Origin: Comamonas serinivorans
GTDB lineage: Bacteria > Pseudomonadota > Gammaproteobacteria > Burkholderiales > Burkholderiaceae_C
NCBI RefSeq assembly: GCF_002158865.1
Contig: NZ_CP021455.1
Coordinates: forward strand, 1,096,835 to 1,160,834
Direction of reading: 5' to 3'
DNA length: 64,000 nucleotides
Under the pieces are notes generated by a model that saw nothing but the letters and a program-made list of their open reading frames with translations, was not told the origin of the DNA and made no database searches. This document shows, piece by piece, positions 27,513 to 59,703 of the stretch (positions within the stretch are counted from its first letter, which is position 1; each line of letters begins with the position of its first letter). The position numbers and the translations under genes were made by a program.

Positions 27513-27883
27513 GGCGAGGTCCTTGGCAAAAACCGACGGCTGACGAGGGACGGGCACGGCGGGCATGCCGTGCGCGGGTTCACTGCCCGGCCAGCTTTGC
27601 AAGCCTGGGCGGCCGAGGCTGTGCTTTAGGCGTCAGCGCAGGCCGCAGATGCCGTGCCTGGCCGGTGGCGAACGCCCGCCTGCGGCCGCGGAGCGCGCGG
27701 CGGCCAGGCGGACTAAAATCACCGGCTTCGCACCAAGGAGCGCTGCAGTTGGCCCAGGCCTTGCCTGGCCGGGCCTGTCAGGCTTGGTGCGGAACGTGTC
27801 GCGCCGGCCACGCCTGCGCTGGCGCGTGGTGTCAACGGCGCTCACCTGTTGTGTTGCTTGTCGGTTTTTTGCAGGTGAGTGTG

Positions 27884-30652
<2,769 letters not shown>

Positions 30653-30657
30653 GGTGA

Positions 30658-30712
30658 GGAGTATGGAGTGTTTATCGATGATTCTTCATCGGAAATGGCT
30701 GCATACTCCATG
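30658..30712. repeat. SPR family copy
   Basis: GGAGTATGGAGTGTTTATCGATGATTCTTCATCGGAAATGGCTGCATACTCCATG. Confidence 0.6.
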
Positions 30713-30722
30713 TAGATGATGC

Positions 30723-31343
30723 TCAATCGCTGCGGCCGAATCCGGCGACAGGGTGTCGCAGGCGATCGTGGCGGTAGTCCTCGGCGACCTGTGCCCGCAG
30801 CACCTGCCAGTGCGCGCGGGACACATGCTGGCCCAGCGGCTGCCAGGCCGGGTAAGGGTTGTAGACCGCCACGTCGTCGGGGTACAGAAACGGCTGGAAC
30901 TTGAACGGGATGGGCAGCTGCGGTGCGGGCCCCAGGTTCAGCAGGGCCAGCAGACGCGCACAGCGGCCGCGAATGCGCTGCCAGTGTTCGCCCTCCACAA
31001 AGCCGCGGTGCGAGGTGTGCCAGGCCAGCTCGCGCACCACCTCGCGTTTCAAGGCTGGCGGAAAACGGTGCGCGTCGATCAGCCCATGCAGGCGCGGGTC
31101 GTCCAGCACGGCATCGGCCAGGTTCATCAGCTCGAAGTCCTGCAGCACCAGGGCGCAGAACAGCTGGTAGGCCGGGTTGCTGATGCGGTAGCCATGCTCC
31201 TCATCCAGCGTGATGGCGGCTTGGTGCGCGCCGGGGCTCACTGGCGTCAGCGTGCAGGTGTAGAAGTGCGCGAGCTGGGTGGCTGCTGGCAACTGGCCGA
31301 AGTGCAGCAACGCGTGCAGGTGGTTCAGGTCAAGCATCGGCAT
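30723..31343 (-). CDS. hypothetical protein (206 aa), downstream gene of the SPFH operon
   Basis: Good GC3. No recognised domain. 77 bp downstream of the SPFH gene on the same strand. Confidence 0.5.
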   Translation of the reverse strand: MPMLDLNHLHALLHFGQLPAATQLAHFYTCTLTPVSPGAHQAAITLDEEHGYRISNPAYQLFCALVLQDFELMNLADAVLDDPRLHGLIDAHRFPPALKREVVRELAWHTSHRGFVEGEHWQRIRGRCARLLALLNLGPAPQLPIPFKFQPFLYPDDVAVYNPYPAWQPLGQHVSRAHWQVLRAQVAEDYRHDRLRHPVAGFGRSD

Positions 31344-31420
31344 CCCCAGTCAGCGTCGCGCACAAAGCGTGGCAACTTGAGCGGCACGGTTCACGGTGCC
31401 GCTCATCCAGTGCTCGGCGC

Positions 31421-32581
31421 TCACCCTGGCTGGCGCAGCGTCACCAGGCCGTTCAGCACCTGATCGAGCCCGCCGACGACGGAGATCTTGTCGATGCGCT
31501 CGGCCACGCGCTCCAGCGTTTCCAGCTCCTTCATGCGCAGGGCGACGGGGTTGCCCTCCATCACCTTGGCGGTGTTCAACAGCGAACGCGTGGCCGCCGT
31601 TTCCTCGCGGCGGCGGATCACGTTGGCCTGGGCCGACTTTTCGGCCTCCACGACCTGGGCGAGGATGGTCTTCATCTCGCCGGGCAGGATGATGTCTTTC
31701 ACGCCCACGCTGTCCAGCGCCACGCCCGATTCAGCCAGGCGCTCGCGCACCTGGGCCAGCACGGCGCCATCGATGGCGGCCTTGTTTTCCAGCAACGCAT
31801 CCAGGTTCTGTTCGCCCACGGCGGCGCGCAGGCCGAATTGCAGCTCGCGGTAGACGTGGTCGGCTGGCTTGGGCATGCGCGCCAGCGCGCGCTGCACGTC
31901 GGTGAAGTGCCACACGGCCGAGAGGTTCAGTCGCAGGCCCACCTTGTCACGGGTCAGGATTTCCTGGCCATTCACCTCGGCGATCTGCGCTCGCAGGTCC
32001 ACGGTGCTCACGCTCACCTGACGGTTGAAGCGCCAGAAGCCATGCACGCCTGCCGGCAGCAGCGCTTGCATCTGGCCGTCCAGCGTGAGCACGCCAGCGT
32101 GGAACTCGGGCACCTGCACCAGCAGCACGCCGTCCAGGCCGCGCACGGCGCGCGGGCGCAGTGCCACGCTGTGCAGCTTGGCCAGCAACTCGGCGGGCAG
32201 GCGCGCGTCGGCGCTCAGGTCGACCACGTCCACGCGCTGTTCGCGCAGGCCGCGCCAGAACAGCTGGCGCGTGGACGGCGGCAGGATCTCGACCAGCACG
32301 CCGTCTTCGTGGCGCAGGCCGACCTCGGTTTCGCCCAGCACCACCTGCACGAACTCGCGGGCCAGCAGGGCCGGCTCGTGGGCTACGAAGTAGTCGGCCA
32401 GCTCGTGCTCAAAGCGCGCCGGCGCGTCCGGTTTGCCCAGCGAAAAGCGTTCCAGCGTCACATCGTCCAGGCCTGTGAACACGCGGTGCTTGCCCGGGCC
32501 AAACAGGCCGGCGAAATCGCCATCGCGCAGCAGCAGCGCGCGTTCGTGCTTTTTGACGGTGAAAATGGTGAATCCCAGCAT
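31421..32581 (-). CDS. SPFH/band-7 (slipin-like) domain protein
   Basis: C-terminal half carries the SPFH signature (VGVKDIILPGEMKTILAQVVEAEKSAQANVIRRREETAAT). ATG at 32581 with GGGAGAG RBS. Confidence 0.75.
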   Translation of the reverse strand: MLGFTIFTVKKHERALLLRDGDFAGLFGPGKHRVFTGLDDVTLERFSLGKPDAPARFEHELADYFVAHEPALLAREFVQVVLGETEVGLRHEDGVLVEILPPSTRQLFWRGLREQRVDVVDLSADARLPAELLAKLHSVALRPRAVRGLDGVLLVQVPEFHAGVLTLDGQMQALLPAGVHGFWRFNRQVSVSTVDLRAQIAEVNGQEILTRDKVGLRLNLSAVWHFTDVQRALARMPKPADHVYRELQFGLRAAVGEQNLDALLENKAAIDGAVLAQVRERLAESGVALDSVGVKDIILPGEMKTILAQVVEAEKSAQANVIRRREETAATRSLLNTAKVMEGNPVALRMKELETLERVAERIDKISVVGGLDQVLNGLVTLRQPG

Positions 32582-32609
32582 GTTGCTCTCCCGGTGTGTT
32601 GTTGGTCAT

Positions 32610-32659
32610 GGGTATGGCCGTGTCGTCATTGATGATCAGTCGCAAAAATTGCCATACCC
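32610..32659. repeat. SPR family copy (in 5' leader of SPFH gene)
   Basis: GGGTATGGCCGTGTCGTCATTGATGATCAGTCGCAAAAATTGCCATACCC. Confidence 0.55.
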
Positions 32660-32930
32660 AAGTTCTGTTCAAGGTGCCCAGCTCGCACAGGCTGCGGGCG
32701 ATCGGCGGGGTGCCGGCGCGCGTGGTCGTGCTCCCGGTTGTGTTGCTGGCACTGGCCTGGGCCAGGTGCACGGCCGCACAACCGCGATGGCGGCTGGCGC
32801 GCCAGGCACCGAAGCGCGAGGCACAGGCAGCCTGTGCGGGCAAGGTGCGCCGGGCGGCAGGACCAAGCCATTCGCCAAGCGCCGCCTTGCCAGGGCGGGT
32901 GGGGCTTTCGCCCCCATCCAAGCGGTGCAA

Positions 32931-33045
32931 GCACCGCGGCAATGGGCGGGAATCGAACCCGCAGCCGCCACCGAAGTCGCGGTGTTCAACCATGAACAAG
33001 TCTTGGACCGAAACCAAGCGTCACCTCAGCCCATCCGCGGCATAC
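32931..33045 (-). ncRNA. second tRNA-like structured element (canonical T-arm GCGGG-TTCGATT-CCCGC, anticodon-like hairpin CTTGG-TTTCGGT-CCAAG, extra hairpins, closing CCGCGG stem)
   Basis: Read on the minus strand. Lies about 80 nt downstream of the minus-strand sigma-54 promoter. No CCA or canonical acceptor, so it is not a standard tRNA gene. Confidence 0.45.
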
Positions 33046-33134
33046 CGCCCACCCAAGAACGGGTCTGGCGGGCGGCACCGGGCCGCATGCATGCGGCACC
33101 TCGTGCGGATGACTGCGTCCGACAGCAGGTGTCT

Positions 33135-33150
33135 TGCAGACGCCGTGCCA
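33135..33150 (-). promoter_or_regulatory. sigma-54 promoter on minus strand (TGGCAC-GGCGT-CTGCA), divergent from rtcR
   Basis: Reverse complement of plus-strand tgcagacgccgtgcca. Points toward the second tRNA-like element and the SPFH operon. Confidence 0.6.
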
Positions 33151-33280
33151 ACTTCCGGCCCAGGCCGTTTCCGCGTGGAGGCCGCTGCGCCAATGCCTTG
33201 ATTTGCAAGCGGTTCGGTGCCCCTGGCCCGCTGACCTGCGTGTCAGCGGGCGATCGTCGGTGTTTGCTAGACTGAGGACC

Positions 33281-33312
33281 CTTGATTCATCCGGCGCGTT
33301 CTTGATTCAGCC
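33281..33312 (+). promoter_or_regulatory. two direct copies of CTTGATTCA(T/G)CC upstream of rtcR ATG: candidate RtcR UAS / autoregulatory site
   Basis: cttgattcatcc at 33281-92 and cttgattcagcc at 33301-12. The same motif recurs upstream of the two plus-strand sigma-54 promoters. Confidence 0.4.
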
Positions 33313-34965
33313 ATGAAACCCATTCACGTCATCACCTTCCTGGGCACCCAGCTGGACAGCGGCAACGGTGCCGGCCGCTGGGAGAAGTGGCGGCCCACCG
33401 TGGCGCTGACCCAGCACGAGGACATGGAGGTCGCGCGGCTGGACCTGCTGCTGACCGGGCCCAGCCACCGGGCGCTGGCCGAGCGCGTGCGCGCCGACAT
33501 CGGCACGGTGTCGCCCGCCACCGAGGTCGTGCTGCACGAGTTGGCCGTGGACGATCCCTGGGACTTCGACGTCGTCTACACGCAGCTGTTCGATTGGGCC
33601 CGCGCGCAGGCCTTCGATACCGAGGCCGCGCAGTACTGGGCGCACATCACCACCGGCACGCATGTGGCGCAGATCTGCCTGTTCCTGCTGACCGAGTCGC
33701 GCGTGCTGCCCGGGGTGCTGTGCCAGACCTCGCCGCCCAAGCGGCAGCGCGAGGGCGCGGCCGGTGCCTACACGCTGATCGACCTCGACCTCTCGCGCTA
33801 CGACGCCATCGCCCAGCGCCATGCGGCCGACCAGCGCGATGCAGTGGCCTTCCTGAAAAGCGGCATCGCCACGCGCAATGCGCGCTTCAACGCGCTCATC
33901 GACGAGGTCGAGCGCGTGGCCGTGCGCTCCACCGCGCCGGTGCTGTTCGTGGGGCCCACGGGCGCGGGCAAGTCCTTCCTGGCCCGGCGCATGCACGAGC
34001 TGAAGAAATCGCGCCACCAGATCAACGGCGCCTTCGTCGAAGTCAACTGCGCCACGCTGCGTGGCGACGGCGCGGCCTCGACGCTGTTCGGCCACAAGCG
34101 CGGTGCTTTCACCGGCGCCGCCACCGACCGGCCCGGCCTGCTGCGCGCCGCCGATGGTGGGCTGCTGTTCCTCGACGAAATCGGCGAGCTGGGGGCCGAC
34201 GAGCAGGCCATGCTGCTCATGGCCATCGAAGACAAGCGCTTCTACCCCCTGGGTTCGGACCGCGAGGTGACCAGCGACTTTCAGCTGGTGGCGGGCACCA
34301 ACCGCGACCTGCGCGCCGAGGTCGCCGCGGGGCGGTTTCGCGAAGACCTGTTCTCGCGCATCAACCTGTGGACCTACGAGCTGCCTGGCCTGGCGGGCCG
34401 GCCTGAGGACATCGAACCCAACGTCGACTACCTGCTCACCCGCCATGCGCAAGCCTCGCGCCGCGCGGCCCGCTTCAACGTCGAAGCGCGCCGCGCCTAC
34501 CTGCGCTTTGCGCAAAGCGGCGAAGCGCTGTGGCGCGGCAATTTCCGCGACCTGTATGCCAGCGTGACGCGCCTGGCGACCCTGGCCGAGGGCGGGCGCA
34601 TCACCGAGCCGCTGGTGGTGGCTGAGATCAAACGGCTGCGCTGGATGTGGACGCGCGACAGCGCGGTGGCGGCGCCCGGCGCGCGCGCCTCGGGGGGCTC
34701 GCCGGGGGCGATGGCGGTCGATGCGGCGAGCGTGGACCTGGCCGACTTCTACGACGAAGCGGCCCTGGAGCAGATCGACCTGTTCGACCGCGTGCAGCTG
34801 CAGGGCGTCATCGCGGTGTGCCAGCGCTCGCGCACGCTGTCGGACGCGGGGCGCCAGCTGTACCAGGCCTCGCGGGCGCAACGCGCGGCGTTGAACGATT
34901 CGGACCGCCTGCGCAAGTACCTGGCCAAGTTCAACCTGAGCTGGGACCGCGTCAGCACACGATGA
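33313..34965 (+). CDS. rtcR: sigma-54-dependent transcriptional regulator RtcR (N-terminal CARF-like domain + AAA+ sigma-54 activator + C-terminal HTH)
   Basis: Walker A GPTGAGKS, GAFTGA sigma-54 contact motif, RtcR-specific N-terminal domain (VITFLGTQLD...WRPTVAL), C-terminal HTH. Confidence 0.9.
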   Translation: MKPIHVITFLGTQLDSGNGAGRWEKWRPTVALTQHEDMEVARLDLLLTGPSHRALAERVRADIGTVSPATEVVLHELAVDDPWDFDVVYTQLFDWARAQAFDTEAAQYWAHITTGTHVAQICLFLLTESRVLPGVLCQTSPPKRQREGAAGAYTLIDLDLSRYDAIAQRHAADQRDAVAFLKSGIATRNARFNALIDEVERVAVRSTAPVLFVGPTGAGKSFLARRMHELKKSRHQINGAFVEVNCATLRGDGAASTLFGHKRGAFTGAATDRPGLLRAADGGLLFLDEIGELGADEQAMLLMAIEDKRFYPLGSDREVTSDFQLVAGTNRDLRAEVAAGRFREDLFSRINLWTYELPGLAGRPEDIEPNVDYLLTRHAQASRRAARFNVEARRAYLRFAQSGEALWRGNFRDLYASVTRLATLAEGGRITEPLVVAEIKRLRWMWTRDSAVAAPGARASGGSPGAMAVDAASVDLADFYDEAALEQIDLFDRVQLQGVIAVCQRSRTLSDAGRQLYQASRAQRAALNDSDRLRKYLAKFNLSWDRVSTR

Positions 34966-34966
34966 T

Positions 34967-35019
34967 GGGGTATGGTGTGAATGCCGTTTTCCATGAAACG
35001 GAAATGGCCTGATACTGCC
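34967..35019. repeat. SPR family copy (2 nt after rtcR stop)
   Basis: GGGGTATGGTGTGAATGCCGTTTTCCATGAAACGGAAATGGCCTGATACTGCC. Confidence 0.6.
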
Positions 35020-35133
35020 AAGGCTAAGCATTCCACAATGGGATGATCAACAGCGCGCCCGCCGGCTTGCACGGTGGGGCGCATGCAGCGGCTGGCCCAA
35101 GGCCGGGTGCACGACATGGAGAGGGAGACGCAC

Positions 35134-35802
35134 ATGGCGCAGTACATCGAGGTCATTGGACAGGCCAGCGTGAGCGAAGTGGCCGTGGAGCAGCGCGTGG
35201 CGCTGACGGTGTCGCACCGCGGCAAGGGCGGTGGCATGTCGGACAAGGTGGTGGCGCACAAGGCCACGCAGCAGCGTGAGCGGGTGATCGCCACGCTGCT
35301 GGCCCACGGCATGCGGGAGCACGAATTGCATGAGGGCGGCATGGACAGCGGCACCTGGCACTTCAAGCGCAAGCGCGAGGTGCACCACAGCCACCGCATC
35401 CTGCTGATCTGCGAGGACGACGCGCGCCTGTTTGCGGCCCTCGAGGCCCTGGCGCCGCTGCAGGACGAGGGCGAGCTTGACTTGCAACTGGACATGCTGG
35501 ACGCCCGCTACGAGGTGCCGGCCGGTGCGCTGAGCGGGGCGCAGCAGGCGGCGGTGGCGCATGCCCGTGAGCATGCGAATGGCCTGGCGCAGGCTGCCGG
35601 CGTGGCGCTGGGCGCGGTGGTGCAGGTGCAAGAGCTGGCGCCGGCGCGGGAGCGTTCGGGTGCCTATGGCGAGTCCTGGTATGGCTTGGCCGCCGCAGGC
35701 GGCGCGGCTGCGGCACCGGCCATGACCCTCTTGGCGAGTAACCAGCGCACGCGCACCTTGAGCTACCGCGTGCGCTTTGCGCTGCAGCGGGCTGTGCCCT
35801 GA
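35134..35802 (+). CDS. SIMPL/DUF541-like protein without signal peptide
   Basis: IEVIGQASVSEVAVEQRVALTV repeat-like start. RBS GGAGAGGGAG. Confidence 0.45.
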   Translation: MAQYIEVIGQASVSEVAVEQRVALTVSHRGKGGGMSDKVVAHKATQQRERVIATLLAHGMREHELHEGGMDSGTWHFKRKREVHHSHRILLICEDDARLFAALEALAPLQDEGELDLQLDMLDARYEVPAGALSGAQQAAVAHAREHANGLAQAAGVALGAVVQVQELAPARERSGAYGESWYGLAAAGGAAAAPAMTLLASNQRTRTLSYRVRFALQRAVP

Positions 35803-35882
35803 CGCGCGTCGTTCGCCGCAACGCCTGGGCCGCGGTGGCCTGAATGTCGGTCCGACCGTGCACTGGGCAGGACGTGGGGCCA

Positions 35883-35917
35883 GTGAATCGCCTGCAACGC
35901 CCCTGCAGACGATTCAT
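35883..35917 (+). promoter_or_regulatory. inverted repeat TGAATCGCCTGCA-N7-TGCAGACGATTCA, candidate enhancer (UAS) about 110-140 bp upstream of the sigma-54 promoter at 36026
   Basis: 13-bp arms. Contains GATTCA as in the CTTGATTCAT motif. Confidence 0.4.
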
Positions 35918-36025
35918 GGGCGGGCGTAGAGTTCGCATCGAAAGCGATACAGTGGGATCGTGTTCGGCGGTCATGGTGGCGTGCAGCCCTGCTGTCGCCC
36001 TGGGGTGAAGCGGGATGGGCCGAAC

Positions 36026-36041
36026 TGGCACGGCCGTTGCG
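36026..36041 (+). promoter_or_regulatory. sigma-54 (-24/-12) promoter TGGCAC-GGCCG-TTGC
   Basis: Perfect match to TGGCAC-N5-TTGC. Lies 224 bp downstream of the SIMPL-like gene and immediately upstream of the tRNA-like element. Confidence 0.7.
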
Positions 36042-36058
36042 AAGGATGAGGTGAACGT

Positions 36059-36146
36059 GGGCCCAGGTCTGGGGTGGCGCAAAGCGAGCGCGTCGGACTT
36101 GAATCCGAAGGGTGCTGGTGCAAGTCCAGCCCCCAGACCTGGGCCC
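36059..36146 (+). ncRNA. tRNA-like (Y-RNA-like) structured element with 16-bp acceptor-like stem
   Basis: GGGCCCAGGTCTGGGG (36059-74) pairs perfectly with CCCCAGACCTGGGCCC (36131-46). Interior folds as TG / D-arm GCGC-AAAGCGA-GCGC / G / anticodon-like TCGGA-CTTGAA-TCCGA / variable AGGGT / T-arm GCTGG-TGCAAGT-CCAGC. No CCA. Confidence 0.6.
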
Positions 36147-36422
36147 GCGAAACCCGGGGGCGCGACGGCGCGAGGCAGGCCTTGACGCGGCGGCCGTGTC
36201 GGCAAGGGTGCAGCGAGAAGCGGCTACCAGGCCGGTTGCCACGCATCGCAGCCCGTCGGCCAGCCCGACCGGCAGGGGATGAGGTCAGGTGTGCAACGGT
36301 CTGGCGCAGTTCAAGGAGAACGCCCGACCATGCATCGGGAAGGTGCTGGACAAGCCAGCCGCCAGACCGTTGCGCATGGGCCAGTCCCCGTCCCGATCCA
36401 CACGAACACAGGGAGAGCGGCC

Positions 36423-39320
36423 ATGGGCCAGCACGACGAAGAGCACTCACCGGACGCCGGTGAGCACCCGGTGCCGCCGGCGCATGCGGCATCCGGGCTT
36501 GCCCAGGCGAACCCGGGCTGGGCAGCCGGCCAGCTTGCACGCGCCCGTGCGGCTTTGGCACAGGCACAGGTACAGCGGGACCCGTCAGGGCCCGACGCGG
36601 CCGGCGCTGCGTCATCCGCGGATACCGACGCTGCAGGCCACGCCGTGGCGCGTGCGCTGGCCAAGGTGAATGCCTGGCGCCAGGCCTTGGCCGGCATGGC
36701 CAGTGGCGAGCTGCAGGTGGGGTCGCGCACGCCGCTGCGCAACGTGGCGGCCTGGCTCACGCCGAATGTGTTGCACGGCGGATTCGCCTCGGGCCAGCTG
36801 ATGGCCGGGGGGCGCGCGCAAGCACACGAGACGCACTGGCTGGCGCAACTGGCGGCCGGTCAGCCGCTGGGCAGCACGCCGACCGACTGTGCCCGGATGG
36901 CCACGCTGGCGGCACAGCCCGTGGACCGCAGCACGCTGCCCCAGAAGCTGGACCGCACGCCGCTGAACGACTGGTTCCTGACCGAGGCGGGCCTGCAGCA
37001 GCTGATGCAGTGGCTGGACGACGGCCGCTGGCGCATCGCCGTGCCCGAGGAGGGCGCCTTGCTGGTGGTGGCCTGGCTGCTGAGGCAGGGGCATGACACC
37101 TCGGCGGCCCGCCTGTTGGACACCCTGTCGCCCTACTGGCACCGCGTTCGCTTTTACCCGCAGCCCGCTGCGACGCCCATGCCGGCGCTCGACCGCGTGA
37201 GCCTGCGCAGCGCGCAGGACGTGATGGCGCAGTTGAACCAGCTGCAGACGCCGCCCGCGGTGCTGGCCCAGCACCAAGCCATCCACGTGTGGCGCCCCTT
37301 GCTCGACGAGCTGGTGCTGCTGTGGCTGCAGGCCGTGCCCGGCGCGCTGCACGGCCCTGACGCTGCCGCGGCCCATGGCGAATCCGGGCGAGGTGCCGAC
37401 GGCGCCGTGACGGATGCGCTGCCGCGCCTGCGTGCCGGCACGCGCGAGGCCGAAGGCGGCTTGCCCCTGGCCGAGCCCGACGCCGACTGGCGGCAGCAGG
37501 CGGCGGCCTGGCGCCTGCGGGCGCGCGAGGCCGAGGCGCAGCACACGCGCAGCCGGGCGCACCGCAAGCCCGGCTCGCACGTGGCGCAGTTGTGGGCCAT
37601 GCTGGACCAGGTGCTGCAAGGTCAGGCCCTGAGCGAGGCACAGCGCCGCCGGCTGCGCTTTGTGCTGGCGTGCCAGGTCAGCGCCCATGGCGTGCCAGGC
37701 GATGCGAGGCACCACACCTGGCGCGCCGCGCAACGGGCGCAGACCGACACCGTGTGGCGCGCCCACTGGGCGTACGCACTGGCCGCGCGCGTGCAGGCGC
37801 AGGGCCCCTACGCGCTGGGCGATGGCCTGCCGGATCTGGACACCGCGCTGCAAGCTGCCACGGCGCAAGAGGCACAACAACATGCGCACCTGCCCGAAGG
37901 CACCGTGGTCTGGCCCAGCCTGCGCCGCAAGCTGCGCCGCGCCCACTTGGCCACCGTGCCGCAGCTGGTGCAAGCCGGCATCGTGCCGTCGAGCGAGGTG
38001 CTGGCCAGCGTGCTGCCCGGCACCACGGGCGCACAGCTGGCGCGCACCATGCCCGATGCGGCCAGCGCGCGGCTGCTGGGCGCGCTGTGGCGTGCGTTTC
38101 GCGGGCGACGCTCGGTGCTGCTGCTGAACCACGAGTCGCAGGTGCGCTTTCACGAGCTGCCCTGGGTGCTGCGCTTGCAGCAGCACGCCTGCGTGCCGGC
38201 GACGGCCGCCGGGACCGAGGGCGATTCGGCACATCGCTGGGACATGGCCGGCCTGGCGCGCAGCCAGGCGTTGGCGCAGCTGGATGCGGCCGCGCGCCTG
38301 GCGCTGACGCAATTCCCGCAATCGGCCTTCCCGAACCCGCTGCTGTGGGAGCTTCGCGCGCTGGCCGAGCAGGGTGGCTGGCAGCCGCCGTGGGTCGAAG
38401 ACATCGCGGCCGACATCTTCATGGGCAGCTTTGGGCCCAAGTTCGGGCAGGCCGTGCACGACGCGCTGCCCTGGTTGCAGGGCAGCCTGTATGCGCAGCA
38501 TTTCCAGCTCGACCTGGAGGCGCTGCGCCTGGCCATGGCGCCGGCCGTGGCCTGCCACGCGGCCTTTCAGCGTTACGCCGAAACGCCAGCGGGCTCACCC
38601 GGCAACCCCGCGGCCAAGCGCGAACAACAGGCCTTGCTGCAGCGCTATCACGCGGCGCCCGACCTGCTGGTGGCGCACCTGCGTGCGCGCACGGGCTGGT
38701 CGGCCGACGCCCGCGGCGTGGGCGCGAATGGCGCCGTCATCGAGCAGATGGGCCTGGTCAGCACGGCCAACTTCGCGCCGCTGGCGCAGCGCTTTGGCTG
38801 GGGCGTGGCCGGTGCCGGTTTGCGCGATGCCACGGCCCAGGCGCGCGAGCTCCAGGGGTGGGCGCAGGCCGCACGCACGGGCTTCGAGCGGCTGTGCGCG
38901 GGGCTGGACCTGGGCGTGCGCGAAGCCGGCGCCATGCTGGACAAGCCGCCAACCCAGATCCAGGCGACAAACCCGGCGGATGCCCATGCGGCAGCGACAG
39001 AAGCCCAGGCCGCCGACCGCCTGCTGGCCGAGCGCGTGCGCCGGGCCGCCACCAGCTGGCGCCAGGTCGTGCTGCTGCTGAGCCTGCTGCCCGCCGAGCA
39101 GCAGCGCGCCAACCTGCTGGGCATGCAGCGCCACCTCGCGGCCTGTGACACCCCCGCCAGCCGGGGCGTGACGCGCGCCCTGGCGCCCCAGCTGGCCGAC
39201 CTGATGGCCTGTGTGCAAGGCCAGGCGCGCGACGCCGGTCGGCCACCGTTCCACGGCTGGACCCAGCCAGGGCAGCGGGGCGTGCTGTTCACCCTGCGCC
39301 AGGGCCTGAAGGCCGGGTGA
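36423..39320 (+). CDS. large (about 965 aa) Ala/Leu/Arg/Trp-rich protein of unknown function in the rtc locus
   Basis: Uninterrupted frame with strong GC3 bias throughout. The antisense 648-aa ORF is rejected. Possible starts at 36279, 36330 and 36423; 36423 has the best RBS (AGGGAGAG). No catalytic motif recognised. Confidence 0.6.
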   Translation: MGQHDEEHSPDAGEHPVPPAHAASGLAQANPGWAAGQLARARAALAQAQVQRDPSGPDAAGAASSADTDAAGHAVARALAKVNAWRQALAGMASGELQVGSRTPLRNVAAWLTPNVLHGGFASGQLMAGGRAQAHETHWLAQLAAGQPLGSTPTDCARMATLAAQPVDRSTLPQKLDRTPLNDWFLTEAGLQQLMQWLDDGRWRIAVPEEGALLVVAWLLRQGHDTSAARLLDTLSPYWHRVRFYPQPAATPMPALDRVSLRSAQDVMAQLNQLQTPPAVLAQHQAIHVWRPLLDELVLLWLQAVPGALHGPDAAAAHGESGRGADGAVTDALPRLRAGTREAEGGLPLAEPDADWRQQAAAWRLRAREAEAQHTRSRAHRKPGSHVAQLWAMLDQVLQGQALSEAQRRRLRFVLACQVSAHGVPGDARHHTWRAAQRAQTDTVWRAHWAYALAARVQAQGPYALGDGLPDLDTALQAATAQEAQQHAHLPEGTVVWPSLRRKLRRAHLATVPQLVQAGIVPSSEVLASVLPGTTGAQLARTMPDAASARLLGALWRAFRGRRSVLLLNHESQVRFHELPWVLRLQQHACVPATAAGTEGDSAHRWDMAGLARSQALAQLDAAARLALTQFPQSAFPNPLLWELRALAEQGGWQPPWVEDIAADIFMGSFGPKFGQAVHDALPWLQGSLYAQHFQLDLEALRLAMAPAVACHAAFQRYAETPAGSPGNPAAKREQQALLQRYHAAPDLLVAHLRARTGWSADARGVGANGAVIEQMGLVSTANFAPLAQRFGWGVAGAGLRDATAQARELQGWAQAARTGFERLCAGLDLGVREAGAMLDKPPTQIQATNPADAHAAATEAQAADRLLAERVRRAATSWRQVVLLLSLLPAEQQRANLLGMQRHLAACDTPASRGVTRALAPQLADLMACVQGQARDAGRPPFHGWTQPGQRGVLFTLRQGLKAG

Positions 39321-39710
39321 GCAGGTCGGGTGAGGTCAGGTGAAGCCAGCGGGGCCATGGGGCCCCATCTTCCAGGTTGGCCCGAATGGTGACCGTGGGT
39401 CTGGGTGCCGGTGCTGCCGCCCCAGGCGTTCGCTGTGGGCGCCTGGCGGACTGGCGCCGAGGAACGGAGGAGCTTGCGCGACAATCCGGCATCCGGTCCG
39501 GGCGAGGCTCGCTAGGACATGGCCATGGCGCGCGGCGGTCAGCACGCGGCGGTGTCGGCCCCGCAGCCGCGCGATCCCGGTGGTCGGGTGCAAGTGCCCT
39601 GTCGGCTTGCGTTCCACGCCAACAGGCCTGCTGCCGTGCCTCGTGCCATGTCAACCGTTGCTTGACGGTCGGCGGGCCCCGTGCCCACGCCGTGTTGTTC
39701 AGAAGTACCC

Positions 39711-40454
39711 ATGCCTTTACGCATCGACGAAGCCATCACCCAGCTGGATCACGGCTGGCTCAGCCATTTGAAATCGCAGGGTTACGGCGGCGATGCCTTG
39801 CGCCAGGCGATCGACCTGGTGCTGTACGCCCAACAGCAGGCGGCGGCGCGCAACAGCGCCGAGTTCAAGGCCGCCATCGCGCGCGTCAACCACCTGGTGG
39901 GGGCGGGCATCGCGTGTGACAACAACGGCGACTACCTGTACACGGCCGAGTGGCGCGACCCGGCTTGCGCCGGGCTGGGCTTCGCCATCGAATACGCGGC
40001 CGACCCGGCCAGCTGGCGGGCCGAGTTCCGCATGCCCGGCTGCTGGCCGCACACCGTGGACAACCTCGACATCACCGACACCCGCGCTGTGGACCACGAC
40101 TTTGCGCTCTGGCTGGCGCGCGCCAGTGCCCGCCATTTCACGCACCTGATCGAACGCCAGCTGCCCGAAGGCGAAGCACTGCGCGCGCCCTGTACGGCGG
40201 CCGTGCGGGCCGGCACCTGGGCCGAATTCGTGTGCCTGCACCCACTGCAACCCGTGGCCCGCCTGGGGCACGAGCGGCTGGAGCAGGCCGCCTGGTCGGC
40301 CCAATACCCCAGTGCCGCCCAGCGCGAGTTGCAGGCCCGCTTCGATGTGCAGAGCGCCTTGCTGCTGCGCTTGATCGTGGTTCAGCAGGCAGCATGGGCT
40401 TGGCATGAAGAGTATGGCGACAATCGCGATGACGATTCAACGGGAAGGCATTGA
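39711..40454 (+). CDS. hypothetical protein (248 aa)
   Basis: Good GC3. C-terminus and stop are supplied by an inserted palindromic repeat unit. Confidence 0.45.
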   Translation: MPLRIDEAITQLDHGWLSHLKSQGYGGDALRQAIDLVLYAQQQAAARNSAEFKAAIARVNHLVGAGIACDNNGDYLYTAEWRDPACAGLGFAIEYAADPASWRAEFRMPGCWPHTVDNLDITDTRAVDHDFALWLARASARHFTHLIERQLPEGEALRAPCTAAVRAGTWAEFVCLHPLQPVARLGHERLEQAAWSAQYPSAAQRELQARFDVQSALLLRLIVVQQAAWAWHEEYGDNRDDDSTGRH

Positions 40455-40462
40455 TACTCCAT
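40408..40462. repeat. SPR family copy (overlaps 3' end of the 248-aa ORF)
   Basis: GAAGAGTATGGCGACAATCGCGATGACGATTCAACGGGAAGGCATTGATACTCCAT. Confidence 0.55.
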
Positions 40463-40814
40463 TTGATGTGGCGCTTGCTGAGGGCTGCTTGCCCGACACC
40501 GGAAGGCTGGCGTCGACGCAGGGACATGACGCGTGGCCAGCGGTGCATGGGCTCGCCAGCCGCCCGCACAGCGCCCCCAACCCGCTGACTGGGCGTCCTG
40601 ATGCAGCAGGCCTGGCTCGACCTGCCCGTGCTCTTTCGCCTGCATGCGCAGGCGCGTGGCCAACAGGTGGCGCAGCCCGAGCGGGCCGATGGGGTGTTCG
40701 CCATCCAGGGCACGGCCAGCGCGCAGCCTCACACCGTCCGAGACGGACCGCATCCGGGCCGATTGCCTGTGAAGGCGGGCTTGCAAGGGGCGCTGCATGG
40801 ATCGCTGGCGCGCT

Positions 40815-40828
40815 GGATGAATCAAGCC
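40815..40828 (+). promoter_or_regulatory. GGATGAATCAAGCC (reverse complement GGCTTGATTCATCC), candidate UAS about 110 bp upstream of the rtcA sigma-54 promoter
   Basis: Exact reverse complement of the CTTGATTCATCC copy at 33281. Confidence 0.4.
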
Positions 40829-40934
40829 AGTTTGGCTTGCGGTGGCTGAGCCGTGGCGAGGCGCAGGCGCCCTCGACGCCAAGTGCTTGATCCGGCAAGG
40901 GTTTGCGCGGCTCGCCTGTTGATTTGGCGGGGCC

Positions 40935-40950
40935 TGGCACGCCGCGTGCA
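40935..40950 (+). promoter_or_regulatory. sigma-54 promoter TGGCAC-GCCGC-GTGCA upstream of rtcA
   Basis: GG/GC spacing correct, one mismatch at -14. About 38 bp upstream of the rtcA ATG. Confidence 0.6.
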
Positions 40951-40987
40951 ACGAGGATGGCCACACACAACTCAACTGGGAGCACAC

Positions 40988-42193
40988 ATGCCAACCGACG
41001 ACCAGGTGGAGGCGAAGCCGCGTCACCGTGACCCAGCTCGCACGGCCACCGCCGCAGACACCAAAAGCGTGACCGGCGCAGCGCAGACGGGCCGTGGCGC
41101 AGCCATCGAGATCGATGGCTCGCAGGGCGAGGGCGGCGGGCAGATCCTGCGCACGGCGCTGGCCTTGTCCATGATCACCGGCCAGCCGCTGCACCTGCGC
41201 GCCATCCGCGCCAAGCGGCCCAAGCCCGGGCTCATGCGCCAGCACCTGATGTGCGTGCAGGCGGCCGCGCAGGTCAGCGGGGCCCACATCAGCGGGGCCG
41301 AGCTGGGGGCCACCGAGTTGCGCTTCGCGCCGGGCCCGGTGCGGGCGAGCGCCTACGAATTTGCCATGGCCAGCGCAGGCAGCTGCATGCTGGTGCTGCA
41401 GACCGTGCTGCCGGCGTTGATGCTGGCCGATGCCCCCAGCACGCTGGTGCTGCGGGGCGGCACGCACAACCCCATGGCGCCCAGCTTCCACTTTGTGCGC
41501 GATGCCTTTGCGCCGCTGGTGCAGCGCCTGGGCGCCGGCCTGACGCTGCAGCTGCAGCGGCTGGGCTTTTACCCCGCAGGCGGTGGCGAGGTCACGGCCA
41601 CCATCACGCCTGCGGCCCGCCTGACCCCGTTCGACCTGACCGAGCGTGGCGAGCTGCAGCAGGGCGATGCTCTGTGCCTGACGCCGGGGCTGTCGGGGTC
41701 GATCGCGCGCCGCGAGCTGACGGCGCTGGGCCAGGCCATGGGCTGGGGCGAGGACCGCTTGCGCTTTGGCGAGGCCAGGCAGCACGAGGGGCCGGGCAAT
41801 GCCTTGATCGCCCGCCTGCGCTACGCCCACGTGACCGAGGTGTTCGTCGAGCTTGGGGCCCGCAACCTGTCGTCGGAGCAGGTGGCCGGCAAGCTGGTGC
41901 AGGCCATCCGGGCGTTTCAACGCCGGCCAGGTGCCGCGGTGGGCCCACACTTGGCCGACCAGCTGGTGCTGCTGCAGGCCCTGGCCGTGTGGCAGGCCGG
42001 ACGGACCGGCAGCCAGGCGGATGCGCCCCACGCCGATGTGCCCCAGGCGGATGTGCCGCAAGCACGCTTCTCGTGCAGCGAGGTGACCGAGCACTTGCGC
42101 ACCAACTGCGTGGTGATCGAACGCTTTCTGCCCGTGCGCTGCACGCTGACCCAGGGCCCTGTGTCCCGGGTGACGGTGCGCTGGGCGGGGTGA
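40988..42193 (+). CDS. rtcA: RNA 3'-terminal phosphate cyclase
   Basis: IEIDGSQGEGGGQILRTALALSMITGQP, GSAGSC and FYPAGGGEV RtcA signature blocks. About 37-aa N-terminal extension and an internal ADVPQADVPQ duplication. RBS GGGAG at 40977. Confidence 0.85.
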   Translation: MPTDDQVEAKPRHRDPARTATAADTKSVTGAAQTGRGAAIEIDGSQGEGGGQILRTALALSMITGQPLHLRAIRAKRPKPGLMRQHLMCVQAAAQVSGAHISGAELGATELRFAPGPVRASAYEFAMASAGSCMLVLQTVLPALMLADAPSTLVLRGGTHNPMAPSFHFVRDAFAPLVQRLGAGLTLQLQRLGFYPAGGGEVTATITPAARLTPFDLTERGELQQGDALCLTPGLSGSIARRELTALGQAMGWGEDRLRFGEARQHEGPGNALIARLRYAHVTEVFVELGARNLSSEQVAGKLVQAIRAFQRRPGAAVGPHLADQLVLLQALAVWQAGRTGSQADAPHADVPQADVPQARFSCSEVTEHLRTNCVVIERFLPVRCTLTQGPVSRVTVRWAG

Positions 42194-42365
42194 GTCCCGC
42201 GCGCCAGTCGGGGCACTGAGGCGGGCTGGCGGGGCCCCTGGCCTCGCCGGCCGGGCCCATGCCATCCCGCGCAAGGCCCGCCGGCGCCGAGGTGCCCGGC
42301 GCCGCGCAACGGACGATGCGCGGAGCTAGGGCCGGGGTGAGCGGGATGGGCGACAATCGCGCGCC

Positions 42366-43250
42366 ATGACTGCAGCCAACCCCTCTGCGGATTCGACCGT
42401 GAATTCCAACGCCTACATCCTGACCCTGTCTTGCCCCGACCGCACGGGCATCGTCCATGCCGTTTCGGGCTTTCTGCTGGAGCAGGGCGGCAACATCGAA
42501 GAAGCCGCGCAATTCAACGACCCGGGCACCGGCCTGTTCTTCATGCGCGTGCGTTTTGCCAGTGCCAGCGCGGACTACGAGGCCCTGCGCGCCAAGCTGA
42601 CCGACTTCGCCAAGCCGCTGGACATGAAGCTGCGCCTGTATTCGACCAGCGAGCCCATGCGCACGGTGATCTTCGTCAGCAAGGAAGGCCACTGCCTCAA
42701 CGACCTGCTGTTCCGCTGGAAGTCGGGCCTGCTGCCCATCGACATCCGCGCCATCGTCAGCAACCACCGCGACTTCTACCAGCTGGCCGCGAGCTACAAC
42801 ATCCCGTTCCACCACCTGCCCATGACCCGGGACAACAAGGCCGAGGTCGAGGCCAAGCAGTTCGAGATCATCAAGCAGGAAAGCGCCGACCTGGTGGTGC
42901 TGGCGCGCTACATGCAGATCCTGTCGGATGACCTGTGCCGCAAGCTGGCGGGGCGGGCCATCAACATCCACCACAGCTTCCTGCCCAGCTTCAAGGGCGC
43001 ACGCCCCTACTACCAGGCGCACGAGCGCGGGGTGAAGCTCATCGGCGCCACGGCGCACTACGTGACGGCCGACCTCGACGAGGGGCCCATCATCGAGCAG
43101 GACGTGGCGCGCGTGGACCACTCGCGCACCGTGGAAGACCTGACCGCCATCGGCCGCGACACCGAGAGCCAGGTGCTGGCCCGCGCCGTGAAGTGGCACA
43201 GCGAGCACCGCGTGCTGCTCAATGGCCACAAGACCGTGGTGTTCCGCTGA
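42366..43250 (+). CDS. purU: formyltetrahydrofolate deformylase
   Basis: ACT domain then formyltransferase core (HHSFLPSFKGARPY). Confidence 0.9.
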   Translation: MTAANPSADSTVNSNAYILTLSCPDRTGIVHAVSGFLLEQGGNIEEAAQFNDPGTGLFFMRVRFASASADYEALRAKLTDFAKPLDMKLRLYSTSEPMRTVIFVSKEGHCLNDLLFRWKSGLLPIDIRAIVSNHRDFYQLAASYNIPFHHLPMTRDNKAEVEAKQFEIIKQESADLVVLARYMQILSDDLCRKLAGRAINIHHSFLPSFKGARPYYQAHERGVKLIGATAHYVTADLDEGPIIEQDVARVDHSRTVEDLTAIGRDTESQVLARAVKWHSEHRVLLNGHKTVVFR

Positions 43251-59112: not shown

Positions 59113-59703
59113 ATGCACCTTTTTCCACCGGCACACCCCTTGCTCACGCCGCGGCTGCAACTGCGGCGTTTTCGCGACACCGACTTCGCCGCGTATGCCG
59201 CCTACCACGGTGACCCGCAGGTGTACCGCTTTCTGTACCAGGCCGCACCCGAGGCCGACCGGCTGGGAACGCAGTTCGCCGAGGTGTTGCGCGCACCGTT
59301 CGACGGCGATGGGCACGCCTTGCGCCTGGCGGCCGTGCGCCAGGCCGATGAGGCCGTTGTCGGTGAGGTGCTGCTCAAGATCGCCAGCCTCGCGGCCTTG
59401 CAGCTGGAGGTGGGCTACATCTTCAACCCGCGCTTTGGCGGCCAGGGCTATGCGACTGAGGCGGTGCGCGCCCTGCTGAATTGGGGCTTCGAGGGCATGG
59501 GCGCCCACCGGATCTTTGCGCGGCTGGATGCGCTCAACACGGCCTCTGTCAAGGTGGTGGAGCGCCTGGGCATGCGCCGGGAAGCCCACTTGATCCAGAA
59601 CGACCGGTTCAACGGTGTCTGGGGAGACGAGTACATCCATGCGTTGTTGCGGTCCGAGTGGCCGCAGGTGGCTGTGTGCCCTGGCCAGGGCCCAGCAGGA
59701 TGA
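59113..59703 (+). CDS. GNAT family N-acetyltransferase (RimJ/RimL-like)
   Basis: Acetyl-CoA binding motif region (RFGGQGYATEAVRALLNWGF). Confidence 0.7.
   Translation: MHLFPPAHPLLTPRLQLRRFRDTDFAAYAAYHGDPQVYRFLYQAAPEADRLGTQFAEVLRAPFDGDGHALRLAAVRQADEAVVGEVLLKIASLAALQLEVGYIFNPRFGGQGYATEAVRALLNWGFEGMGAHRIFARLDALNTASVKVVERLGMRREAHLIQNDRFNGVWGDEYIHALLRSEWPQVAVCPGQGPAG

Follow-up and report, generated by a model that had tools for sequence, protein, structure and literature searches.

In Escherichia coli, the genes for the RNA ligase RtcB and the RNA 3'-terminal phosphate cyclase RtcA reportedly form an operon, rtcBA, with the activator gene rtcR divergent from it (Genschik et al. 1998); by annotation, a single sigma-54 promoter is followed by rtcB and then rtcA. 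In Salmonella, the arrangement is rsr-yrlBA-rtcBA, which includes a Ro60 orthologue with the Y RNAs YrlA and YrlB (PMC4201824, PMC7790460). Here we analyze rtcA within a 64-kb stretch of DNA from Comamonas serinivorans (~70% G+C), hereafter the window, in which the regulatory architecture predicted from the sequence departs from the known Rtc arrangement: rtcA has a separate promoter of the RtcR type, designated P3, and the locus contains no rtcB. With about even confidence, we propose that an active RtcA, expressed from an RtcR-controlled P3, would feed back on RtcR rather than prepare RNA ends for an adjacent ligase. The features of the gene and its control region are as follows.

40818..40826, plus strand: candidate RtcR binding motif (upstream activating sequence) TGAATCAAG, 117 nt upstream of P3
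40879..40892, plus strand: block GCAAGTGCTTGAT, some 55 nt ahead of P3 and invariant in a four-sequence alignment
40935..40950, plus strand: P3, sigma-54 (-24/-12) promoter of rtcA, TGGCAC-GCCGC-GTGCA (motif scan, conservation)
40978..40982, plus strand: Shine-Dalgarno sequence GGGAG, 5 nt before ATG 40988 (read from the sequence)
40988..42193, plus strand: rtcA, RNA 3'-terminal phosphate cyclase (Pfam, NCBIfam, alignment to E. coli RtcA, AlphaFold (AF2) model)
40988..41104, plus strand: N-terminal tail of RtcA, residues 1-39 (Protein Data Bank (PDB) alignment, predicted local distance difference test (pLDDT), homologue comparison)
42017..42061, plus strand: 15-nt tandem repeat encoding ADAPH-ADVPQ-ADVPQ, residues 344-358 (Tandem Repeats Finder)

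The P3 site TGGCACGCCGCGTGCA, located 53 nt before the rtcA ATG, has one mismatch to TGGCAC-N5-TTGCW and canonical spacing between the GG at -24 and the GC at -12; transcription would start near 40961. A TGGCAY-N5-GTGCA site lies 49 nt ahead of rtcA in the metagenomic relatives L082/L083, L084, and L089 (49-53 nt when the window is included), whose RtcA proteins are just 68-69% identical to that of the window. When the four upstream regions (the window and the L082, L084, and L089 relatives) were aligned, the site was invariant, being thus present in 4/4 clade members, and conservation was confined to islands comprising the two promoter elements, the GCAAGTGCTTG block ~55 nt before them and, still farther upstream, a GCGCT...AT block. 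The negative control consisted of 80 related loci that had been fetched with RtcA, nearly all of which include rtcB; a scan of the 400 nt upstream of rtcA, allowing up to two mismatches, found a sigma-54 site in none of them (0/80). Conversely, the same scan retrieved one divergently oriented site 95-215 nt from the rtcR start in 29/29 loci of a positive-control set, which comprised all the Burkholderiales-type loci among L002-L035 with a divergent rtcR. Because P3 is invariant in four clade members amid diverged intergenic DNA, as opposed to its absence from the control loci, its conservation argues that the private promoter of rtcA is a real, clade-specific feature and not a chance match, which bears out the dedicated sigma-54 promoter proposed in the sequence-only reading.

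The gene rtcA, from ATG to stop, encodes a product of 401 aa that is identical to an annotated NCBI protein of C. serinivorans. This product matched the Pfam families RTC (PF01137; 3.2e-74, 249 bits, cutoff 27) and RTC_insert (PF05189; 26.3 bits, cutoff 23), as well as the NCBIfam models NF003246 (373 bits, cutoff 352) and TIGR03399 (322 bits, cutoff 250), and it is 47% identical to E. coli RtcA. Residues E48, R55, R74, R77, Q85, and H369 align with E. coli E14, R21, R40, R43, Q51, and H309, respectively, and are invariant across 20 homologues. From the E. coli structures (1QMH, 3TUT), we take His309 to be the adenylylated histidine and the other five residues to be phosphate or metal ligands. 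Since all of them are present and invariant in the 20 homologues, RtcA is predicted to be catalytically intact and should be active as an ATP-dependent cyclase; the pLDDT of its AF2 model is 87.4.

The putative regulator of P3 is encoded 6 kb upstream of rtcA by an intact rtcR, whose product scored 788 bits with the NCBIfam model RNA_repair_RtcR (cutoff 650). This gene is flanked by two further sigma-54 sites, designated P1 and P2.

33135..33150, minus strand: P1, divergent sigma-54 site next to rtcR, the orthologue of the promoter of classical rtc operons, in the same position as in 29 related loci
33313..34965, plus strand: rtcR, sigma-54 activator with a CARF-type RtcR domain (Pfam RtcR 6.3e-76 and Sigma54_activat; NCBIfam)
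36026..36041, plus strand: P2, sigma-54 site TGGCACGGCCGTTGCG, 41 nt before the tRNA-like RNA 1 listed below

Three exact copies of the 9-mer TGAATCAAG are present in the 64 kb, compared with an estimated ~0.06 expected from base composition. Besides the copy preceding P3, the other two are at 33281-33289 and 33301-33309, that is, 139 and 159 nt upstream of P1, and every copy is oriented like its promoter. An upstream activating sequence had also been predicted ahead of the rtcA promoter, and the presence there of an activator-type motif common to the P1 upstream region agrees with it; TGAATCAAG is thus a putative RtcR site, although we know of no experimental definition of the RtcR operator. 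Additionally, 5 of the 18 TGAATC hexamers in the window fall 115-160 nt upstream of P1, P2, or P3, including an inverted pair upstream of P2 (35884 and 35911). The only exact integration host factor (IHF) consensus of the window, WATCAANNNNTTR, is at 33191-33203, between the P1 motifs and P1, and the rtcR-divergent promoters of relatives have a WATCAANNNNTTR-type site in the equivalent place (about -60). Likewise, the core of this consensus, ATCAA-N4-TT, is present on the opposite strand of the GCAAGTGCTTGAT block upstream of P3 (reverse complement, ATCAAGCACTTGC). P2 has a counterpart in L082 (at 3313), also 41 nt ahead of a tRNA-like RNA. RtcR therefore appears to serve three sigma-54 promoters, and the dependence of P3 on it is suggested by the shared motif.

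The gene order of the locus, derived from frame-specific G+C and family searches, is metH, unk206 (minus strand), the SPFH gene (minus strand), P1, rtcR, a SIMPL/DUF541 gene, P2, unk1013, unk257, a 530-bp gap, P3, rtcA, and purU. Its remaining features, including three tRNA-like elements, are listed here.

30723..31343, minus strand: unk206, gene for an unknown protein of 206 aa, without homologue in any fetched locus
31421..32581, minus strand: SPFH/Band-7 gene (Pfam Band_7 1e-25; synteny by tblastn)
32937..33007, minus strand: tRNA-like element 3, within the leader that separates P1 from the SPFH gene (29.9 bits, E 3e-5, with covariance model R1)
36057..36149, plus strand: tRNA-like RNA 1 (Rfam tRNA 52.8 bits; covariance model R1 68.9 bits; minimum free energy -68.7 kcal/mol, z -6.4)
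36299..36368, plus strand: tRNA-like RNA 2 (covariance model R1 33 bits, E 3.8e-6; counterparts in L082 and L089)
36423..39320, plus strand: unk1013, from ATG 36423, large all-alpha protein of 965 aa from an unannotated family (NCBI CCO03_04750, hypothetical)
39681..40454, plus strand: unk257, clade-restricted orphan of 257 aa (NCBI CCO03_04755)
40619..40769, plus strand: remnant of p726, SCO0854/MXAN_6230 family (tblastn with p726 from L082)

The SIMPL/DUF541 gene (35074-35802, plus strand) separates rtcR from P2 in this genome alone; the corresponding interval of L082 carries no gene, and we found no homologue in any fetched rtc locus.

Searches with tblastn using RtcB from E. coli and from three Comamonadaceae did not reveal rtcB in the window (best E 0.55), nor did we find remnants of rtcB, rsr, or rlaP there at E values of up to 10. 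Related loci are usually of two types. In the first (14 Burkholderiales loci), rtcR adjoins rsr, tRNA-like RNA, rtcB, rlaP, and rtcA, and in the second it adjoins a divergent tRNA-like RNA, the SPFH gene and others, then rtcB, sometimes rlaP, and rtcA. The P1 side of the window, with its weak tRNA-like element and SPFH gene, resembles the second type but ends before rtcB; the operon served by P1 (SPFH gene and unk206) spans 30723..32581 on the minus strand, whereas in relatives it runs on into rtcB.

On the other side of rtcR, L082 contains rtcR, two tRNA-like RNAs, homologues of unk1013 (53% identity) and unk257 (68%), p726, and rtcA, and L089 has the same cassette from the tRNA-like RNAs onward. 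Since both share this order, synteny indicates that rtcA is the terminal gene of a conserved RtcR-linked cassette. The p726 gene (726 aa), which is intact in L082, L084, and L089, scored 476 bits with the NCBIfam model NF041916 (MXAN_6230/SCO0854 family), under the model cutoff of 600 bits, and a PDB sequence search with its product gave no match. In the window only its last ~46 codons are recognizable, in two frames (aa 681-710 at 40619-40708 and aa 711-726 at 40722-40769), and the 530-bp gap upstream of rtcA (40455-40987) exists because p726 decayed in this genome. By the same comparison, P3 is an element that predates the loss of p726. The idea of a stand-alone cyclase with no ligase partner was thus right in that no rtcB is linked to the gene in the window, but rtcA does not stand alone, being the last gene of a conserved cassette.

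In 17 relatives, the 0.9-2.6 kb between rtcB and rtcA (e.g., L003 9104-9973) are filled by a gene for RlaP (PF10127), an RNA repair pathway protein of the DNA polymerase beta family. Because of this, non-adjacent rtcB and rtcA genes are common in the order without a separate rtcA promoter.

A mechanism can be proposed from these data. RtcA would convert RNA 3'-phosphate ends, from broken tRNAs and possibly from the operon's own tRNA-like RNAs, to 2',3'-cyclic phosphates, and RNA ends of this kind are the ligand of the RtcR CARF domain. RtcR would in turn activate P3 from the TGAATCAAG-type site that precedes it, probably assisted by IHF-type bending around -55, so that a separately promoted rtcA could establish a positive feedback loop that amplifies and sustains expression from the three promoters. 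Of these, P1 would drive the tRNA-like leader, the SPFH gene, and unk206; P2 the two tRNA-like RNAs, unk1013, unk257, and then the decayed p726; and P3 rtcA. The effector side would be formed by the tRNA-like RNAs, unk1013, unk257, and the SPFH operon. Previous work showed that RtcA is required for induction when breaks carry a 3'-phosphate, and that extra RtcA alone raises expression of the operon (PMC7790460); RtcA is also reported to bind the RtcR CARF domain directly (PMC9650030). A feedback loop is the simplest reading because rtcR and rtcA are kept, with a promoter of the RtcR type and no rtcB at the locus, and RtcA makes the activating ligand; end preparation for an adjacent ligase is disfavored because the locus lacks rtcB, rsr, and rlaP.

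Several observations weigh against this feedback. The window contains five sigma-54 motifs versus 4.2 expected from shuffled sequence, so the count alone is not significant. More distant relatives show no obvious TGAATCAAG motif but have AGCTAGT/TTCTAG-type motifs near rtcR instead, and P2 is preceded only by TGAATCG-type variants of it. Additionally, the cassette is decaying, here by loss of p726 and the other way in L084, where rtcR is a 23-codon remnant (L084 945-1013) and no unk1013 homologue was found on the 7.8-kb contig; the system may for this reason be partly vestigial. Finally, RtcA could still serve classical heal-and-seal if rtcB were elsewhere in the genome.

This last point is the substance of the alternative that survives best, namely that rtcB, or another ligase of 3'-phosphate or cyclic phosphate ends, is encoded at an unlinked site, maybe behind a further RtcR/sigma-54 promoter, and that the separate promoter of rtcA merely reflects gene shuffling. 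The 64 kb searched are part of a genome of 4.5 Mb, RtcB and RtcA act as partners in nearly all related loci, with rtcB upstream of rtcA in most of the 80, and even a locus of the unk1013 family, L094, still has rtcB, rtcA, and unk1013 together. However, the rtcR-divergent operon that bears rtcB in relatives ends here after the SPFH gene and unk206 without an rtcB remnant, and the 14 kb that were fetched from the 26-kb contig of the closest relative, L082, covering the surroundings of rtcR and rtcA, show no rtcB either. We consider an unlinked ligase possible, but doubtful.

Less probable is an alternative that concerns the N-terminus of RtcA, for which a non-conserved extension of about 37 aa had been described. 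Alignment to the sequence of the E. coli RtcA crystal structure begins at residue 39/40, with residue 40 corresponding to E. coli residue 6; the extension is therefore real, of ~34 aa, and not conserved, but it is not special, because tails of ~20-35 aa with unrelated sequences are present in the seven closest homologues (P0002-P0008) and in several more distant ones. The tail could be an artifact of the start codon, the true start being GTG 41069 (V28), in which case the extension would be at least 7 aa and the protein only ~7 aa longer than E. coli RtcA. Such an artifact would fit the lack of sequence conservation, the lack of structure in the AF2 prediction (residues 1-33 have pLDDT <50) and a G+C content at third codon positions of 0.74, lower than the 0.91 of the remainder of rtcA. 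Yet this value is well above the 0.58 of the in-frame non-coding stretch upstream, and the only in-frame starts besides ATG 40988, GTG 41006 and GTG 41069, lack a Shine-Dalgarno sequence, whereas GGGAG is at optimal spacing for the ATG. Likewise, the transcription start predicted for P3 is just ~27 nt upstream of this ATG, and the called starts of the seven closest homologues are 20-35 codons upstream of the conserved IEIDG motif. A misassigned start is thus unlikely, and the tail is probably translated; it looks like a disordered, fast-evolving and neutral appendage, which is not expected to change catalysis.

It is still less likely that the match at P3 is fortuitous or inactive, and that transcripts of rtcA come from P2 by read-through or from an unrecognized sigma-70 promoter in the decayed p726 region. 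As noted, sigma-54 motifs are no more abundant in the window than in shuffled sequence, so that the case for P3 lies in its conservation and position; moreover, a scan for intrinsic terminators found none in the 530-bp gap between unk257 and rtcA, which would allow read-through from P2. Nevertheless, the promoter elements and the GCAAGTGCTTG block do not vary across the four diverged relatives, unlike the intergenic sequence on either side; none of the 80 control loci has the site, and TGAATCAAG is common to P1. A search for sigma-70-like sites in 30500-42500 gave one match, at 31716 on the minus strand, and thus none upstream of rtcA.

RtcA was also noted to carry a 10-aa duplication, near 42040-42070 in the DNA. 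Tandem Repeats Finder identified a repeat with a period of 15 nt (2.5 copies, 86% matches, 42020-42057), and the repeated segment (42017-42061) lies within an insertion of ~23 aa relative to E. coli RtcA (residues 334-359, nt 41987-42064). As called for in the sequence-only reading, alignment places this insertion, between E. coli residues 296 and 300, in a variable loop ahead of the His369 segment. In the AF2 model, the helix starting at the ADQL motif is lengthened to residue 342 and followed by a loop (343-357) that leads to the strand and helix carrying His369; the mean pLDDT of residues 341-350 is 63. The duplication itself stands, but not its singularity: the seven closest homologues have low-complexity insertions of varying length and sequence at the same loop, none with the repeat. 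From this comparison, we interpret the ADVPQ repeat as a private event of replication slippage in an already hypervariable surface loop; it looks neutral and is not expected to change catalysis. That the tail, the repeat, or both are functional adaptations, for instance a docking peptide for the RtcR CARF domain or unk1013 that retargets RtcA, is highly improbable: although the seven closest homologues have tails and loop insertions, with the contexts in L082, L084, and L089 being rtcB-less, while most rtcB-linked homologues of ~345 aa lack them, and although direct binding of RtcA to the CARF domain is reported (PMC9650030), neither segment is conserved in sequence within the clade, their predicted order is low, the repeat is private to this genome with the signature of recent slippage, and tails appear sporadically in the unrelated homologues P0063, P0068, and P0072.

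The proposed effector side of the RtcR circuit includes the tRNA-like RNAs. RNA 1 contains a 72-nt cloverleaf (36067-36139) with the terminal stem lengthened to ~18 perfect bp. Its anticodon loop has 6 nt (CUUGAA) and ARAGORN reported it as "tRNA-???" with a two-base anticodon, so it lacks the 7-nt loop and three-base anticodon of canonical tRNAs; defective loops of this type are likewise found in L082 and L087. Rfam recognized the generic tRNA family alone (36068-36138), with no match to Y RNA or any other family. RNA 2 is more degenerate, with shortened D and T loops, but has the same terminal-stem sequence as RNA 1, and is 55 nt before the best start of unk1013 (ATG 36423). Element 3 is weak: its T arm is perfect, but its acceptor stem is poor; clearer tRNA-like genes are in the same place in L004, L012, L022, L027, and L029, and their predicted anticodons include a stop anticodon and two-base anticodons. 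We built covariance model R1 from seven tRNA-like elements. In an alignment of 13 RNAs, 97.4% of the cells were paired and 12 of 18 pairs showed compensatory changes, with no shuffled or slid control coming close, although this alignment was fitted to the model, which favors the structure somewhat.

A tRNA-like RNA precedes the gene of the unk1013 family in 9/11 contexts from different phyla, comprising 3/3 close and 6/8 distant ones (positive, L087 (Promicromonospora), L090, L091, L093, L094, and L095; negative, L085 (Myxococcus) and L092). Examples are found at L082 3354-3549, L089 44-224, L087 9856-10000, L091 5822-5977, L094 2900-2973, and L095 2843-3059. There are one or two RNAs, often in tandem and several with anticodon loops of 5 or 6 nt; they resemble one another, and each shares the strand of the gene that follows and lies 0-90 nt ahead of its start codon. 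The constant strand, the short distance, the frequent tandems, the mutual similarity, and the defective anticodon loops make it unlikely that they are mere tRNA genes used as integration sites by mobile elements.

For unk1013, ATG 36423, preceded by a GGGAGAG Shine-Dalgarno sequence, fits better than the NCBI start (GTG 36645, 891 aa) because the latter cuts off the conserved N-terminus of the family (NPGxAxGQL) and the former has a ribosome-binding site; the start of the longest open reading frame, at 36279, would overlap tRNA-like RNA 2. The family comprises 1,840 representative clusters at E values up to 1e-3, while unk257 has 9 homologues only and is syntenic in L082, L084, and L089. Neither these two proteins nor unk206 matched Pfam, NCBIfam, or PADLOC. 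The suggestion that sealing is carried out by one of the unknown proteins was not supported, as unk1013 is helical, with no ligase-like fold or motif found, and unk257 is a clade-restricted orphan. We also considered unk1013 as a divergent Ro60 and rejected it, since hhalign against 13 Rsr sequences gave a probability of 0.2% and a fold search showed no relation either. In the metagenomic contig L094 (1-5337), rtcR adjoins rtcB, rtcA, a tRNA-like RNA, and an unk1013 homologue, and this context is a second, independent link of the family to the Rtc system.

The tRNA-like RNAs and unk1013 would then probably constitute an RNA-protein module in the place of the Ro60 and Y RNA of rsr-yrlA-rtcBA operons. 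A broader proposal can be advanced only tentatively: the unk1013 family and the one or two tRNA-like RNAs upstream of it might be a candidate, hitherto unrecognized module parallel to Ro60/Y RNA, with an unrelated fold and plugged into Rtc, that in the C. serinivorans clade replaced Ro60 and RtcB, with RtcA being kept under its own promoter as the maker of the RtcR signal; cyclic-phosphate RNA ends, perhaps those of the tRNA-like RNAs, would then serve as this signal and not as a substrate for ligation.

The biological role of RtcA has been harder to pin down than that of RtcB, and a lineage whose locus keeps rtcR and rtcA, the latter with an RtcR-type promoter to itself, while dropping rtcB is a natural experiment; it supports the view of RtcA as a generator of the signal for the RtcR CARF domain, and not only as a helper of the ligase. 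Being repeatedly encoded behind tRNA mimics, and linked twice independently to Rtc genes, the unk1013 family (~1,800 clusters, no Pfam or NCBIfam model) stands out as a concrete candidate for a new factor that binds tRNA mimics when bacteria respond to RNA damage. Whereas the variable tail and repeat of RtcA are ordinary and do not warrant attention by themselves, the repeated association of tRNA mimics with the unk1013 family is the lead most worth pursuing.

Elsewhere in the window, an S-adenosylhomocysteine riboswitch (Rfam RF01057, 48 bits; 27729-27850, plus strand) is located just ahead of metH, the gene for B12-dependent methionine synthase, so the GTG 27665 start of the metH open reading frame is probably too far upstream. 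A match to the Burkholderia small RNA family Bcj11 (RF02835, 69 bits) is at 5794-5915 on the minus strand, and a sigma-54-like site, CGGCACACCCCTTGCT, is at 59129-59144 on the plus strand, far from the rtc locus.

Compared with E. coli rtcBA, the locus shares the enzyme family with all the catalytic residues, the activator RtcR (CARF and AAA+ sigma-54 domains), and the type of promoter. It differs in that the promoter of rtcA is private and on the other side of rtcR, in that the locus lacks rtcB and three promoters appear to be under RtcR, and in the ~34-aa tail and ~23-aa loop insertion of RtcA. The P1 side is the ortholog of the SPFH-type rtc operons of Comamonadaceae (L004, L012, L013, L021, L022, L027, L029, L031, and L033), in which rtcR is also divergent from a sigma-54 promoter, a tRNA-like RNA, and an SPFH/Band-7 gene; these operons, however, continue into rtcB, sometimes rlaP, and rtcA, whereas that of the window stops after the unrelated 206-aa gene.

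The resemblance to Salmonella rsr-yrlBA-rtcBA lies in an RtcR/sigma-54 operon with tRNA-mimicking RNAs beside a large RNA-associated protein and rtcA (PMC4201824, PMC7790460), although the window has no Ro60/TROVE protein and no RtcB, and no relation of unk1013 to Ro60 was seen in sequence or fold. As in Y RNAs, tRNA-like RNA 1 combines a tRNA-like domain with a long terminal stem, but it has no Rsr/Ro60 neighbor in the window. Its terminal stem is a perfect helix at the acceptor position, while the acceptor-like stem of YrlA is a closed stem-loop with no free end. With Deinococcus radiodurans Yrn1 it shares the long stem of 5' and 3' ends, the T arm, and a 5-bp stem with a 6-nt anticodon-like loop (PMC4201824); Yrn1, which Rsr binding defines, does not have a full D arm, whereas the RNA from the window, with no rsr partner, forms a complete cloverleaf.

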